Source: a phage
DNA: 64,000 nt
Sequence record: PX880101.1
Reading direction: 5' to 3' (one strand)
Within the stretch, counting starts at the first letter, position 1, and every line of letters starts with the position of its first letter. The position numbers and the translations under genes are program-made. Of this stretch, positions 45,869 through 50,333 are shown one piece after another. The notes below the pieces were generated by a model. That model made no database searches and was not told the DNA's origin. It worked only from the letters and a program-made list of their open reading frames with translations.

Positions 45869-46852
45869 TTAGATTATCTGAATCAGGGTGTTTTTCATTT
45901 CTTCTCTGGTACGGATGTTGTTACGGTCACGAACAACAGATCCACAACCTTCGCAGCGGTATGTTTTAAATGCACTCAGCTGAGTATATGCCAAAGCTTC
46001 TTCCTCGTGAAGGTGTTCTCCACCACAGCGTGGGCAACGAACCTTTGGCTCCTCGTCCTGGTAGTACAATGACATGTTTGGGTGCTGCTTAGCAAACGGG
46101 CGAGCCAGCAAATACAGTCCTTCCAGAGACAGGATATCACCAACATTATACTCCCGCATCTGTTTAAATGCCTCAAGATCGCCATGGACACACTTGATCC
46201 ACATTTCAAATGTGTGATCAATCAGTTTCTGTCTGGCCAGTTGGAAGTATTTGCATGCATACTCCAAAGTGTTTGCATTCAAACGGAATGCCTTCTTGAT
46301 CATTTTAAGGGTGTCAACCTCTTTGTAGGGGCTTGTTGGAGGCAACCCGTGAAATGCAAATCGTTGGTTGGCCCACCCGCAGTCAAAACCTGAATTGTGG
46401 GCTACTGCGACATCGCATTTATCCAGATAATACCACAAATCCTGAATCAATTCGAGATCATTGTGAATATCCTCATCCCACATTTTGTAATCGGGAAGAG
46501 CGCAGTCAACCACACTAGGGCTGTCTAACCACTTACCTGCGAAAGTTAGCATATAAGGCATAACTTCAATACCACAGGTTTGAATGTTGGTCTTATAGTG
46601 CCCAAAGAACCAGCCGTTTGTTGGGGATGTCTCTGTATCATACACCCAAACTTTAGCGCCTTTGTGCTCTTCAAGGAAGCGCTCCGTTGCTTCTCCTACA
46701 ATCTCTGACATATTCTCTTGTGCACGTTTAAGCTGTAGTCGGATCCAGCTCTCACGTGACTCACGGCCTAAAAATTCACGAGCAATTTGTCTATTAGTGT
46801 ATCCCTGTTGCTTTAGTGTTAAAATTTGCTCAAGAGTTAACTTTGTCATCAT
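45869..46852 (-). CDS. DnaQ-like (DEDD) 3'-5' exonuclease with N-terminal HTH and C-terminal zinc ribbon
   Basis: Exo I VWVYDTETS, Exo II HNSGFDCGW, N-terminal LTLEQILTLKQQGYTNRQIAREF, C-terminal CPRCGG...CEGCG. Confidence 0.5.
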   Translation of the reverse strand: MMTKLTLEQILTLKQQGYTNRQIAREFLGRESRESWIRLQLKRAQENMSEIVGEATERFLEEHKGAKVWVYDTETSPTNGWFFGHYKTNIQTCGIEVMPYMLTFAGKWLDSPSVVDCALPDYKMWDEDIHNDLELIQDLWYYLDKCDVAVAHNSGFDCGWANQRFAFHGLPPTSPYKEVDTLKMIKKAFRLNANTLEYACKYFQLARQKLIDHTFEMWIKCVHGDLEAFKQMREYNVGDILSLEGLYLLARPFAKQHPNMSLYYQDEEPKVRCPRCGGEHLHEEEALAYTQLSAFKTYRCEGCGSVVRDRNNIRTREEMKNTLIQII

Positions 46853-46864
46853 CGTTAAGATTCC

Positions 46865-47086
46865 TTAGTAAAACTGAAGAATGTCTTTTAAAGCGAAGTC
46901 ACGATATTCGCCCTTGTCTACATCGAAGGCACGCATCAACCACTGCTCTTCTTTATGATACTCTGTAGAGCCAAACCATAAATTAGGCTCAGTAACGCAG
47001 CGATCTGCAACAACACCTTTCCAGTTACGGTATTTCATCCTGATCAGGACTGAGTCGCAAGGATTGAATACCTTTTTCATCCCCAT
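46865..47086 (-). CDS. hypothetical small protein
   Basis: ORF. Confidence 0.4.
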   Translation of the reverse strand: MGMKKVFNPCDSVLIRMKYRNWKGVVADRCVTEPNLWFGSTEYHKEEQWLMRAFDVDKGEYRDFALKDILQFY

Positions 47087-47630
47087 AGAAATCTCTCTCC
47101 TCAGTTTTCTTTATAAACTCCTGCATGTAGAACTCAATAGCCTCATGCTTGGTGCACTCCGGATTAATGACAAGATTGAGATCTGATTCTGCTCGTGCAA
47201 TGATCGTAGCTTTAGAGCATCTCCTCAAGAACTTTGTCATATCATCTCTGTAGTTTTTGTGGAGCGGGAAGTCGCTGTAGTCTTTCTCCAAATAGTCAGC
47301 CATCCGGCGCAACGCCTCTGATAAACTGCAATCTGTATACTCGTTACAGTATTTCATCCAGTATTTAAGCACATACCCCTCAAAGGTATTAGTGCATTGA
47401 GACAAAACACCCCTGCAACGACCAGTCAGATGATCATGATCTAAACAAGGCTTACGAAGTGGCTCGCACAAGATTGGATCAAGACCATCCTGCTCCTCTG
47501 ACAATTCTTTTCGAAAGTTGGCTATGTCCTTAGAATCTTTTAACCACCCGTTATGAACGGGAGCTTTGACAGCTTTCTTTCTTATTTTACGCTTTGCGAT
47601 AATCCCTCCAGATGCGCCCTGCCTATCCAA
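47025..47630 (-). CDS. endonuclease VII-like (T4 gp49 family) junction-resolving nuclease
   Basis: CLDHDHLTGRCRGVLSQCTNTFEG resembles the endo VII HNH-type core (C..C...DHDH..G..RG.LC..CN..EG) as recalled. Confidence 0.6.
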   Translation of the reverse strand: MDRQGASGGIIAKRKIRKKAVKAPVHNGWLKDSKDIANFRKELSEEQDGLDPILCEPLRKPCLDHDHLTGRCRGVLSQCTNTFEGYVLKYWMKYCNEYTDCSLSEALRRMADYLEKDYSDFPLHKNYRDDMTKFLRRCSKATIIARAESDLNLVINPECTKHEAIEFYMQEFIKKTEERDFYGDEKGIQSLRLSPDQDEIP

Positions 47631-48211
47631 TAAGCATCTGCAAGATCGGCCTTACCTTGTACCAAATTGATCCCATCTAGGAACCCAGGTTCAGATACTT
47701 CGCAGGCCTTAACCATCAACTTTTTATCCATCGTAACAGGTTTCTTCACAGTATGCTCTTTACCTGTCCTTTTGTCAAGCTTTTTCTTCTCCTCAAAAGC
47801 AAGTTCCTCAGGAAGATGACTACGAGCAAACTTTTTGGCAGTTGTTGGTGTCACTGTGTGAACCTTAAACAGGCCGTCATTTTCACAATCAGCTAAAGCA
47901 TCCCAAAGCATAACTTCGAGACCGTAAAACAACCCAGCCAGTTCACGTGTGGCATCCCCGCGTGATCCAAAGGAAAGCCCTTCCATAACCACGGTGTCAA
48001 CGTGGTGCGTGTGGATATAATATCTGACCTGTTTGCAGATCCAGTCAATACGCTCAGCAGCTGTTGCAAAAGAAACCGTCCCTGGTTTCTTCTCTTTTGC
48101 AGATGAGCTTTGAGTTCGTAACACAACCTTGTGAACAGGCTTTCCATCGTCCCATACAACGCAAGCTGTGTGTGTCAACGACTGGTCTATGGATAATAGA
48201 CGCTCTCTCAT
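47582..48211 (-). CDS. putative RuvC-like Holliday junction resolvase
   Basis: N-terminal LLSIDQSLTHTACVVW resembles the RuvC start ILGIDPG..TG.GV; candidate acidic residues VVMEGLSFG and ADLADAYW. Confidence 0.4.
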   Translation of the reverse strand: MRERLLSIDQSLTHTACVVWDDGKPVHKVVLRTQSSSAKEKKPGTVSFATAAERIDWICKQVRYYIHTHHVDTVVMEGLSFGSRGDATRELAGLFYGLEVMLWDALADCENDGLFKVHTVTPTTAKKFARSHLPEELAFEEKKKLDKRTGKEHTVKKPVTMDKKLMVKACEVSEPGFLDGINLVQGKADLADAYWIGRAHLEGLSQSVK

Positions 48212-48543
48212 GCTTCCTCATCCTCCTCTCCTTCATCAGGAGCATAAGCCTTATCTTTGAACAGGACGAGAGAGCAAAGCTTAACATCTGTTTCCACACT
48301 GGTGAACATGCATAACCGCTCGCCCTCAATCAGCTCACAATCCTCTTTTAAAACAGCAGACCATACACGGTCATCTGCGTAATCATCCGTGTACAGGATG
48401 TATGAAATGGTGTCATCTTCGTACAACCGCCACATACCTGTGGCAACAATAAATGTATTTTTTGTTTTAATGGTCCCTGTTGTATGATCATCCTCAAAAA
48501 CAGCTTCCATAATTGCATTATCTACAGAATTTTTAGTCATCAA
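48208..48543 (-). CDS. hypothetical protein
   Basis: ORF. Confidence 0.45.
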   Translation of the reverse strand: MMTKNSVDNAIMEAVFEDDHTTGTIKTKNTFIVATGMWRLYEDDTISYILYTDDYADDRVWSAVLKEDCELIEGERLCMFTSVETDVKLCSLVLFKDKAYAPDEGEEDEEA

Positions 48544-49679
48544 ATTGCTCCAACATTTCTAAGAACGTTAACAAGTTTTGTTTGATCATTGAATGTTCGC
48601 TTCATATACAAACAGTCAAAAATTATACTCATCCATTGACCTACGGAAATTCTACGATCAACACCATTGAAGTCAGTATACTTAACAACACCTTTCGGGA
48701 ACCACTTCTTGTACTGATCAATAATAGCCACCCACATCTCCTTTGGAGTGCTGCACTGAGACAGTAGGTAGAATGCTGAGGCATCCCCGAACTTACCCTT
48801 ACCGATAAGTCCTTGATACGGCTTGATATTGTCAGCAGAGTCACCACACAGCATTTGGTATCCGAAGAACAGCATTCCGTAACCACCAACCTCTCCATTA
48901 GGCTTCATGAAGATGTTCCCCATACCGTTATCGATCAGCATAGGGGTTTCCCTTACAAAATCTCCCTTATCGTTTCGCATGGGATCGAACACAAGCCCCG
49001 GTAGTGTTCTTTGGTCCTTATCAATAGAGATAATAAACTTGTTGAACTTACCTGTTTTTTGGTAGTGGTTCCAACCTTCAAATTGCTGAATAGCTAACCA
49101 GTCGTCAGCCTCGATACCGTTGATCACTTGAGCATTATACTGCTTTTGGAGATACTGTCTTGCATCTCCAAGCAGCAGTGGTCGAAGAGTATTGTTACGG
49201 TTGGCCTTGTATCTTTCCGGCATTGGAAGATCTAGTCTGAAGTTACCTGTGCCTCCCAACACCCCGACACATCGCTCTTCCGGAATACCCAGATAGTTAA
49301 GAACTGCATTAGCTTTACACTTAATTGTGTGTAAGCAGTTCTCTACAGGATCAGGGGTTTGGATATCCAAGACATCGAAATCTTCTCGTGTCCACGGAAT
49401 AAACTCCTTGCCAGCCTTTTTACATGCAGCTTCACGGTTGGTATTCTCAGCTTTTAACCAACCACCAACGGTGTTCTTCTGCCGCCCCCAGAACTCTGTT
49501 CGTGTTTTAAACATCTTCTTACGTCCGGAGGCTTTGTGTGTTACCTCAATTGTCCTTTTTTCACAACTTGCTGCAGCTTGATATGCAACCTGATCGAAGT
49601 CATAATAAACTATAGCGTCAGGTTCAAGAAGATCAGCCAGACAATCTATGGACTCAATAAGTGGATATTCTCTACTCAA
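48540..49679 (-). CDS. 5'-3' exonuclease / flap endonuclease (FEN / RNase H family)
   Basis: GIEADDWLAIQ and SIDKDQRTL motifs characteristic of the 5' nuclease family. Confidence 0.6.
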   Translation of the reverse strand: MSREYPLIESIDCLADLLEPDAIVYYDFDQVAYQAAASCEKRTIEVTHKASGRKKMFKTRTEFWGRQKNTVGGWLKAENTNREAACKKAGKEFIPWTREDFDVLDIQTPDPVENCLHTIKCKANAVLNYLGIPEERCVGVLGGTGNFRLDLPMPERYKANRNNTLRPLLLGDARQYLQKQYNAQVINGIEADDWLAIQQFEGWNHYQKTGKFNKFIISIDKDQRTLPGLVFDPMRNDKGDFVRETPMLIDNGMGNIFMKPNGEVGGYGMLFFGYQMLCGDSADNIKPYQGLIGKGKFGDASAFYLLSQCSTPKEMWVAIIDQYKKWFPKGVVKYTDFNGVDRRISVGQWMSIIFDCLYMKRTFNDQTKLVNVLRNVGAI

Positions 49680-49980
49680 AGACCCTCCTGTTAGTTATTC
49701 TGCAAGATGGTTGGATGCTGTAATGGAATGCATCATCACTCTCTGCAATAAGTGACTCAACATCCCAATACTTTTCAAAAAGGAACGGATTAGACCCCCA
49801 GTGGTGGGTTATTTTCATCAAGGAGTCTGGTATCATATAACCACAGATCTTAATTACATCGCCAGGTTGAATTGTGTTTTCATGAAGGTTGCTTGCCTTC
49901 TTCAGAATCATACCTTTATGATTCTCGTTTGCATACAACTGGACAATATCTTTATCTTCAACAATAAAAATTTTAAGCAT
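49672..49980 (-). CDS. hypothetical protein
   Basis: ORF. Confidence 0.4.
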   Translation of the reverse strand: MLKIFIVEDKDIVQLYANENHKGMILKKASNLHENTIQPGDVIKICGYMIPDSLMKITHHWGSNPFLFEKYWDVESLIAESDDAFHYSIQPSCRITNRRVFE

Positions 49981-50039: not shown

Positions 50040-50333
50040 TCAAGACTTTTTAGTCTTTCTTGGAGAGCTTTTTGTTGATCTTTTCCTTTTGTGGTAGATT
50101 CCAAGTGCAGCGTTTTCTTGGGCGCACGTTTTAACAGTTCTCAGACAAGAACTTTCAGCTTTAGGCAGGTTTAACTCCCACCAACCAAGCCAGTAAAGTT
50201 CTGATTCAGACAACTGCTCAGATTCAGCCTTCCGATACAGGGCTTGCATACCTCTGATGATATCGTCCAGAGGTGTATCGAATACAAAAGCTGTCTTATC
50301 AAATTTCTCTTTTGCAGGTTTCTTAGCCATCAA
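50040..50333 (-). CDS. small basic protein
   Basis: Lys/Arg-rich termini. Confidence 0.4.
   Translation of the reverse strand: MMAKKPAKEKFDKTAFVFDTPLDDIIRGMQALYRKAESEQLSESELYWLGWWELNLPKAESSCLRTVKTCAQENAALGIYHKRKRSTKSSPRKTKKS

Follow-up and report, generated by a model that had tools for sequence, protein, structure and literature searches.

A conserved RuvC-like and endonuclease VII-like gene pair in rV5-like phages, with a probable AUC start for the endonuclease VII-like gene

Endonuclease VII (EndoVII) of phage T4, the product of gene 49 (gp49), is toxic, and gene 49 is under translational control. In jumbo phages, EndoVII-like and RuvC-like resolvases are nearly complementary in their distribution (PMC7824862), and four parent-progeny pairs of mycobacteriophages list one resolvase type or the other (PMC10893344). 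In Escherichia coli, AUA, AUC, AUU and CUG initiate translation at about 1-2% of the level of AUG, and the only confirmed non-canonical starts are those of infC and pcnB, both AUU (bioRxiv 10.1101/063800). Here, a phage locus is described in which a RuvC-like gene and an EndoVII-like gene are found side by side, and in which the latter most likely starts with AUC. The locus is included in the sequence record PX880101.1, which was analysed as a stretch of 64,000 nucleotides (nt), hereafter the window.

A preliminary description of the window had reported an EndoVII-like open reading frame (ORF) at 47025-47630, a RuvC-like ORF at 47582-48211 and, beside them, a 5'-3' exonuclease or flap endonuclease (FEN), and had suspected that one of the two resolvases might be misassigned or specialised. 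Both resolvase ORFs exist at these positions, and every gene of the region is carried by the minus strand. Over 3 kb, the sequence matches that of Escherichia phage A6-1 (PQ510733.1), which belongs to the rV5-like E. coli myophages of Vequintavirus, with 100% identity, and 120 other records, essentially all rV5-like (Vequintavirus), match it at 90-99% identity.

The explanation favoured here, with moderate confidence, is that these genes constitute a conserved cassette whose junction nucleases are non-redundant and divide their labour, that the EndoVII-like protein is translated from an AUC codon at 47600, and that the 49-nt overlap of the two longest ORFs is an artefact. The nuclease pair itself is conserved and has already been annotated; what appears to be new is the probable AUC/AUA start and an EndoVII clade which has no zinc site and bears a basic tail.

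Identity of the two junction nucleases

The RuvC-like gene (47582-48211) encodes a protein of 209 aa from an ATG codon. The protein matched the profile phrog_159 ("RuvC-like Holliday junction resolvase") with the e-value 6.7e-39, while the single sequence had no match in Pfam or NCBIfam and nothing meaningful among PDB sequences. Its identity was therefore resolved by the PHROG profile, the family alignment and a structure model, not by single-sequence search, and it represents a divergent subfamily which falls below the curated thresholds of Pfam and NCBIfam. Database search revealed 22 relatives, the most distant of which (P0019 and P0021) bear the RuvC domain PF02075. The catalytic D-E-D-D tetrad is intact in the window protein as D9, E77, D189 and D192, the last two within a D-L-A-D-A motif. 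Across 21 aligned homologs, P0019 and P0021 included, E77 is invariant and the other three residues are conserved in at least 90%. The N-terminal D and E align with those of Deinococcus radiodurans RuvC.

The AlphaFold2 (AF2) model built on the family alignment has an RNase H-like alpha/beta fold, with a predicted local distance difference test score (pLDDT) of 91.5 and a predicted template modelling score (pTM) of 0.88. The best match by Foldseek in PDB was the RuvC-Holliday junction structure of Thermus thermophilus, 4ld0 (e-value 8e-8, target template modelling (TM) score 0.74). Ranks 1-10 were all RuvC, with target-normalised TM-scores of 0.68-0.76, and the top RuvC matches include 4ld0, 7xhj, 6lw3, 4ktw and 1hjr. 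The model also matched RuvC of D. radiodurans and Pseudomonas aeruginosa, followed by RuvC of the lactococcal phage bIL67, E. coli RuvC and yeast Ydc2, and its matches in the viral structure library BFVD were phage RuvC-like resolvases.

In most records this gene is named "RNaseH" or "hypothetical". No RNase H structure was present among the top 50 PDB structural matches; the "RNaseH" annotation was therefore rejected, and where GenBank records carry this label, it does no more than name the superfamily. The assignment of 47582-48211 is supported by both profile search and structure prediction, and its product is predicted to be a RuvC-family Holliday junction resolvase. One distinctive part is a lysine-rich insertion of ~30 residues (about residues 131-160), predicted to form a beta-hairpin; its sequence EELAFEEKKKLDKRTGKEHTVKKPVTMDKK is encoded at 47808-47720 (about residues 135-164). 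The insertion is conserved in the phage clade and missing from the minimal RuvC homologs P0019-P0022, and it may be an extra DNA-binding element.

The EndoVII-like protein passes the threshold of PF02945 in Pfam (e-value 1.5e-7; 31.6 bits against the cutoff of 23.6) and matched phrog_423 ("endonuclease VII") with the e-value 6.4e-37 over residues 29-176 of the 201-aa ORF. The single sequence matched T4 endonuclease VII (1e7d) with the e-value 3.3e-4, and a family profile of 25 homologs did so with 1.6e-14, covering T4 residues 9-155 of 157. This coverage indicates a full-length gp49-type protein, more than an H-N-H motif. In the following, residues are numbered from the proposed ATC start. The five catalytic residues D54, H55, H57, N71 and E74 are invariant in the 25 homologs and align with T4 D40, H41, H43, N62 and E65, and the residues of the catalytic beta-beta-alpha-metal site are thus all kept; the first three belong to an LDHDH motif encoded at 47430-47444. 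In the AF2 model (pLDDT 86.9), the sole significant Foldseek matches in PDB were T4 endonuclease VII (e-value 1e-5).

The structural zinc ligands of T4 gp49 (C23, C26, C58 and C61; 1en7 structure) align with D41, L44, S67 and T70, and the family consensus has no Cys at any of these positions. The protein has cysteines elsewhere (C45, C52, C62 and C69), which vary within the clade. The Cys4 zinc site known from T4 gp49 has thus been lost in this clade, which has also gained a Lys/Arg-rich N-terminal tail, represented in the window by AKRKIRKKAVKAPV (47556-47597) and Lys/Arg-rich in all lineages examined; the profile alignment to T4 starts only at profile position 27. DNA binding or partner contacts may be altered by the tail and by the missing zinc site, and it is of interest what keeps the fold of the clade stable when it lacks the metal required by T4 gp49.

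Two observations weigh against the gp49-type assignment and what follows from it. The TM-score of the model to T4 endonuclease VII is low (0.35-0.43), and the fold match alone is not strong; such a value is to be expected for a compact monomer model set against a domain-swapped crystal dimer and is uninformative. Moreover, the loss of the zinc site could make the protein behave unlike T4 gp49. The replacement of all four zinc ligands and the basic extension absent from T4 would also fit a protein repurposed as a nicking or mismatch nuclease, for host-DNA degradation or for anti-defence. The RuvC-like protein would then be the sole resolvase, and the usual pattern of one resolvase per phage would be restored. 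Such repurposing is considered unlikely: the entire gp49 architecture is aligned, its C-terminal helical region too, none of the five catalytic residues varies, every lineage keeps the gene beside RuvC and the genes for replication, and there was no pointer to an alternative substrate, host-DNA degradation included. The product is predicted to be a gp49-type endonuclease VII, and the suspicion that one of the two resolvases was misassigned did not survive profile search and structure prediction.

Overlap and translation start of the endonuclease VII-like gene

The longest RuvC-like and EndoVII-like ORFs overlap by 49 nt, close to the 50 nt of the preliminary description. This figure arises because the longest ORF was taken, from the first possible TTG at 47630, and the 201 aa obtained from this TTG (47025-47630) are a mechanical maximum. 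The TTG has no Shine-Dalgarno (SD) sequence, and the conserved start signal described below gives an overlap of 19 nt instead. The overlap of about 50 nt is most likely an artefact of ORF calling.

In the window, GGAGG (47609-47605), which falls within the final codons of the gene for the RuvC-like protein, is followed after 4 nt by ATC (47600-47598). A start there yields a protein of 191 residues, and the gene as re-delimited covers 191 codons at 47025-47600. GGAGG, or GGGGG in its place, is conserved in the 17 distinct RuvC/EndoVII junctions that were compared (loci are designated by L numbers). Where RuvC is directly upstream, the recurring order is GGAGG or GGGGG, a spacer of 4 nt (6 nt in L040), ATC (ATA in L007 and L022) and a basic stretch. 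The basic stretch after ATC reads GGIIAKRKIRKK in the window, GGSIRRKRVRSP in SSE121, GGYIRKRKVKAR in L010, GGCIARKTFKRK in FBKp34 and TGGFITVRRKRK in L017. Although the C-terminal residues of RuvC differ (such as LEG, MEG, LED and KEV), the nucleotides of the G-rich element are retained. The same 4-nt spacing after GGAGG is seen at other long ORFs of the window, including the FEN gene.

In eleven junctions, neither ATG nor GTG nor TTG is present over the interval from the in-frame stop upstream to the basic stretch. L040 has a TAA in frame two codons ahead of ATC. In L014, L022 and L040, the RuvC stop overlaps the proposed start as TAATC or TAATA, which resembles the classical coupling motif TAATG (UAAUG), but with a near-cognate codon. 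Where the homologous site after the SD is not embedded in RuvC, a canonical start is present: GTG or ATG in the Certrevirus-like group, and ATG in L041 (MVKRRSK...). The 45 nt from the RuvC stop to the first canonical start were compared in five distinct Seunavirus-like sequences; they vary at 0, 2 and 8 sites at codon positions 1, 2 and 3, respectively, and the undisputed downstream coding region varies at 5, 3 and 21 sites. The third-position bias upstream of the first canonical start corresponds to a binomial p of about 0.003, calculated by hand. Comparison thus reveals the combination expected of a near-cognate start: canonical start codons that could be used are lacking, the SD is conserved and suitably spaced, and the sequence ahead of the first canonical start is under coding constraint. 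From these comparisons, translation of the EndoVII-like protein most likely starts at AUC 47600-47598.

The annotated model, in which EndoVII starts from TTG 47630 within the RuvC "DAYW" codons and the 49-nt overlap and the 201-aa product are real, is improbable. TTG 47630 is the first canonical start in the open frame, it is annotated as the start in A6-1, navn and MiataMamis, and analogous TTG or ATG codons are present in FBKp34 and the Vibrio phage 495E54-1. This codon has no upstream SD. It lies within TAT-TGG, the Y-W codons of the conserved "DAYW" motif of RuvC, and RuvC coding accounts for its presence. L009, whose EndoVII is 91% identical to that of the window, has an in-frame TAG three codons downstream of the equivalent position, and 11 junctions have no canonical start equivalent to TTG 47630. 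The residues DRQGASGG which this start would add are not conserved, and the substitutions of L002 and L009 in this stretch are synonymous for RuvC and not for the frame of TTG 47630.

The start annotated in phage Mangalyan (OR449013.1), the internal TTG 47504, would give a protein of 159 aa without any overlap with RuvC. ATG or TTG is found at this position in Vequintavirus and in the L010-13 groups, and a shorter nested product is known from T4 gene 49. TTG 47504 lacks an SD and is not conserved beyond the closest genera. A start there drops the nearly invariant R30 and the W-V/L-K..IA..R segment, cuts the predicted helix 23-36, and removes the part aligned to T4 residues 9-20. It is very doubtful that this is the start of the gene, and the codon would be at most a secondary nested start. 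Seunavirus records place the EndoVII start at a GTG downstream of the basic stretch. Among more than 100 rV5-like genomes, public gene calls include three mutually inconsistent EndoVII starts with lengths from 129 to 201 aa, and the comparative evidence yields a single consistent gene model.

A programmed -1 frameshift near the end of RuvC, which would produce a RuvC-EndoVII fusion with the internal GGAGG as stimulator and not as ribosome-binding site, was also considered. In most lineages, EndoVII is read in the -1 frame with respect to RuvC, and this frame extends open into RuvC with no canonical start; in the GTA-AAA-TAA of the window, tRNA-Lys could slip on A-AAA beside the stop. SD-like elements stimulate -1 frameshifting in dnaX. 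This explanation is highly unlikely, and a frameshift fusion was rejected as a conserved mechanism on several grounds. The slippery heptamer is not conserved, with none in L010-13, L018 and L007. The in-frame TAA of L040 and the stop-start overlaps of L014, L022 and L040 leave no room for a frameshift. L008 and L041 have an offset of +1, in the Certrevirus-like group a different gene lies upstream and EndoVII has a plain SD with GTG, and homologous sites with canonical starts exist.

An apparent RuvC-EndoVII fusion was found only in Salmonella phage GE_vB_MG (L072, MG969411.1, UNVERIFIED) and was dismissed as a sequencing artefact. Its single frame is explained by homopolymer errors, A5 to A4 just before the RuvC stop and G3 to G2 inside EndoVII, and the other record of the same phage, GEC_vB_MG (L073, MW006477.1), has RuvC and EndoVII in separate frames. 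An SD-sequestering RNA hairpin as in T4 gene 49 was rejected as well: no significant RNA structure was detected around the EndoVII start, and the predicted folding of the 101 nt examined was not superior to that of shuffled controls (z=-0.43).

For the AUC start itself, several observations point the other way. TTG 47630 is available in the window and could serve too. In L008, from a Vibrio phage, ATC is found without a good SD and upstream ATG codons are present. L010-L013 have a GTG four codons upstream of ATC. The codon-position test is based on only 10 variable sites in the five distinct sequences.

The proposal of a conserved AUC/AUA start is given slightly better than an even chance in its full form, which joins the start to its consequence. 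In rV5-like and related phages, EndoVII would start at a conserved AUC or AUA with a strong SD in the last RuvC codons, in some lineages with the UAAUC/UAAUA overlap. Ribosomes terminating on RuvC would yield EndoVII in a fixed and small proportion, which would couple the two resolvases stoichiometrically. The ribosome-binding site of EndoVII would be inside the RuvC-like gene, and the weak AUC start would possibly be read by the terminating ribosomes. As AUC and AUA work at ~1-2% of AUG, a toxic structure-specific nuclease would be kept low and tied to RuvC translation. Such a low, RuvC-coupled level would be a counterpart to the way in which T4 gene 49 is controlled post-transcriptionally.

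If the proposal is true, AUC/AUA would be a rare and evolutionarily conserved near-cognate initiation codon in an E. coli phage. It would be a natural start, distinct from AUG, GUG and UUG, which spans several phage genera, where only two non-canonical starts are confirmed in the host. It would also be a simple means of holding a toxic nuclease low while coupling it to its partner gene. No paper on an AUC start in a phage gene was found in open-access text.

Occurrence, proposed roles and neighbouring genes

The occurrence of the pair was counted by tblastn with both proteins joined end to end, where one place covering at least 80% of the query was taken as an adjacent pair on one strand. An adjacent, co-oriented RuvC+EndoVII pair was found from 256 phage records, and this RuvC-like family from 303 records. 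The carriers range over Vequintavirinae and Stephanstirmvirinae and include Vequintavirus, Seunavirus, Certrevirus-like phages and one phage of Stephanstirmvirinae, besides some phages of Aeromonas, Vibrio and Pseudoalteromonas. In IMG/VR, EndoVII is present inside the 2.5-kb flanks at 23 of the 62 RuvC-like loci, and the loci without it have more distant RuvC-like proteins. EndoVII without this RuvC is seen in T4-like, Autographiviridae-like and jumbo phages. The view that two resolvase types in one phage are unusual thus holds against the jumbo phages and mycobacteriophages cited above, but not inside this lineage: the pair is atypical among phages generally and is the norm here. Several GenBank records (Mangalyan, MiataMamis and vB_Kpn_K54_rec4) already annotate it as "RuvC-like Holliday junction resolvase" and "endonuclease VII". 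No paper dealing with the rV5-like RuvC/EndoVII pair was found in open-access text.

Some records of the pair deserve separate mention. The Certrevirus-like group (SSBI34, CR9 and relatives), and only this group, has an extra gene of ~210 aa (~640 nt) between the RuvC-like and EndoVII genes, at 1837-2475 in L006 and at about 3130-3650 in L028-L034. At 2501-3190 of L038, which is Raoultella phage Ro1 (MG250486.1) as entered in IMG/VR, the match to the RuvC-like protein ends at query residue 154 and is followed by TGA, and the EndoVII frame is +1 rather than -1, with the same junction sequence as L027. The RuvC-like gene of L038 is frameshifted, either as a pseudogene or by an assembly indel. 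Twenty unannotated GenBank records of the MG0656xx series (such as MG065646.1, MG065647.1 and MG065676.1) are named "Campylobacter phage" with the host Campylobacter jejuni. They are ~98-99% identical to 46800-49800 of the window, and they look like E. coli rV5-like phages deposited with a Campylobacter name or host.

The stable co-retention of a RuvC-type and an EndoVII-type enzyme runs counter to their mostly complementary distribution elsewhere, which suggests different jobs for the two enzymes, and its conservation argues against redundancy. All three nucleases of the region retain the catalytic residues of their own families. By analogy, a specialisation of the two junction nucleases is plausible. 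A dimer of the RuvC-like protein would resolve true Holliday junctions arising from recombination-dependent replication. The EndoVII-like enzyme, like T4 gp49, would serve for broad debranching: ahead of packaging or in its course, it would rid concatemers of Y-junctions, loops and any junctions left over. FEN would remove primers and 5' flaps. It counts against this division of labour that it is extrapolated from T4 gp49 and from bacterial or phage RuvC.

In the direction of transcription, the genes are the FEN-type exonuclease, a 111-aa ORF, the RuvC-like gene, the EndoVII-like gene, a 73-aa ORF and a DnaQ-like exonuclease (45869-46852), the last in this order. The cassette is a conserved nuclease set within the replication and nucleotide-metabolism region of an rV5-like phage. 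The GC skew of the window flips near 20 kb from positive to negative and near 56 kb from negative to positive, and these switches indicate that the minus-strand gene block with the cassette spans roughly 20-56 kb.

The protein encoded at 48540-49679 (379 aa, TTG start) matched phrog_107 ("exonuclease") with the e-value 5.7e-71. The single sequence had no match in Pfam or PDB, and a family profile was needed. Seventy relatives were found, and distant ones bear PF02739 and PF01367; among 22 aligned homologs, PF02739 is present in 10 and PF01367, taken as the sign of a C-terminal helix-3-turn-helix DNA-binding motif, in 1. The profile of these 22 sequences matched T5 flap endonuclease (1exn/1ut5/5hmm), Taq 5' nuclease and 9l56 ("5'-3' exonuclease family protein") with e-values from 1.3e-5 to 0.012, and the alignment to 9l56 passes through the G-D-x-x-D-N region. 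Nine acidic residues are invariant in the family: D27, D29, E190, D192, D193, D220, D222, D280 and D283. The product is predicted to be a FEN-family 5'-3' exonuclease with a PIN-like N-terminal nuclease domain, in agreement with the earlier call. The invariance of D27 and D29 indicates that the long form from TTG 49679, preceded by GGAGG and 4 nt, is correct. MiataMamis (L071 519-1493) calls the gene 55 codons shorter (324 aa). The short call removes both D27 and D29, and the long TTG form with its GGAGG and 4-nt spacing is the better model.

The resolvase genes had been placed beside the exonuclease; they are close by, but not directly adjacent to it, as the 111-aa ORF (48208-48543) separates FEN from the RuvC-like gene. 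This ORF matched phrog_7583, whose function is not assigned, with the e-value 4.8e-57 and had no match in Pfam or NCBIfam. An ORF is annotated at its position in SSE121, 4MG and SSBI34. A6-1 and navn call it "putative exodeoxyribonuclease", a label for which no support was obtained here and which looks like a carry-over from the neighbouring gene.

Downstream of EndoVII, the small ORF (46865-47086; 73 aa from the first ATG, or 57 aa from ATG 47038) matched phrog_3715 with the e-value 2.6e-26 and showed weak WYL/SH3-like Pfam matches below threshold. It overlaps the 3' end of EndoVII by 62 nt from ATG 47086, 56 nt from ATG 47080 or 14 nt from ATG 47038, and the annotation of MiataMamis uses the short form. 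The C-terminal ~20 residues of EndoVII which overlap the small ORF are poorly predicted (pLDDT <50). Upstream of the FEN gene, two small ORFs (49672-49980 and 50040-50333, both on the minus strand) are annotated as "transposase-like protein". The former is a perfect match to the 102-residue PHROG 14449 ("transposase", e-value 2e-72) and has no Pfam transposase domain. At 97-102 aa, these ORFs are too small for transposases.

Comparison with known nucleases and near-cognate starts

Compared with T4 gp49 (1en7, 1e7d and 2qnc; PF02945), the EndoVII-like protein shows collinear full-length homology, a similar size and invariant equivalents of the catalytic residues, and it shares the C-terminal helical region including a YL(K/E)xDY segment. 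The differences are the Lys/Arg-rich N-terminal tail of about 15-25 residues, the replacement of all the zinc cysteines, an acidic C-terminal extension with pLDDT <50 after residue 172, and the probable AUC/AUA start instead of AUG. The gene also adjoins a second resolvase gene, whereas T4 is without a second resolvase.

The RuvC-like protein shares the RNase H-like fold and the D-E-D-D residues with bacterial RuvC and RuvC of phage bIL67 (4ld0, 1hjr and 4ktw; PF02075). It diverges too far to pass the thresholds of Pfam and NCBIfam, and it has the added lysine-rich hairpin of ~30 residues. In the region examined, its gene has no RuvA or RuvB partner, like poxvirus and jumbo-phage RuvC. The catalytic core of the window FEN aligns with T5 D15 flap endonuclease and the Pol I 5' nuclease (1exn, 5hmm and 1taq; PF02739/PF01367), and it retains the acidic clusters that are conserved and the K/R residues that are typical in the active sites of FEN proteins. 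The window protein exceeds T5 FEN in length by ~90 residues and has a large insertion behind its first cluster of acidic residues, and its single sequence is below Pfam detection.

The arrangement proposed for the EndoVII-like gene is similar to those of infC and pcnB, in which a weak near-cognate start (AUU) with a strong SD limits a dose-sensitive protein. It differs in the codon, AUC or AUA, and in its range: on comparative evidence, the start would be conserved over several phage genera and not in one gene of one species.

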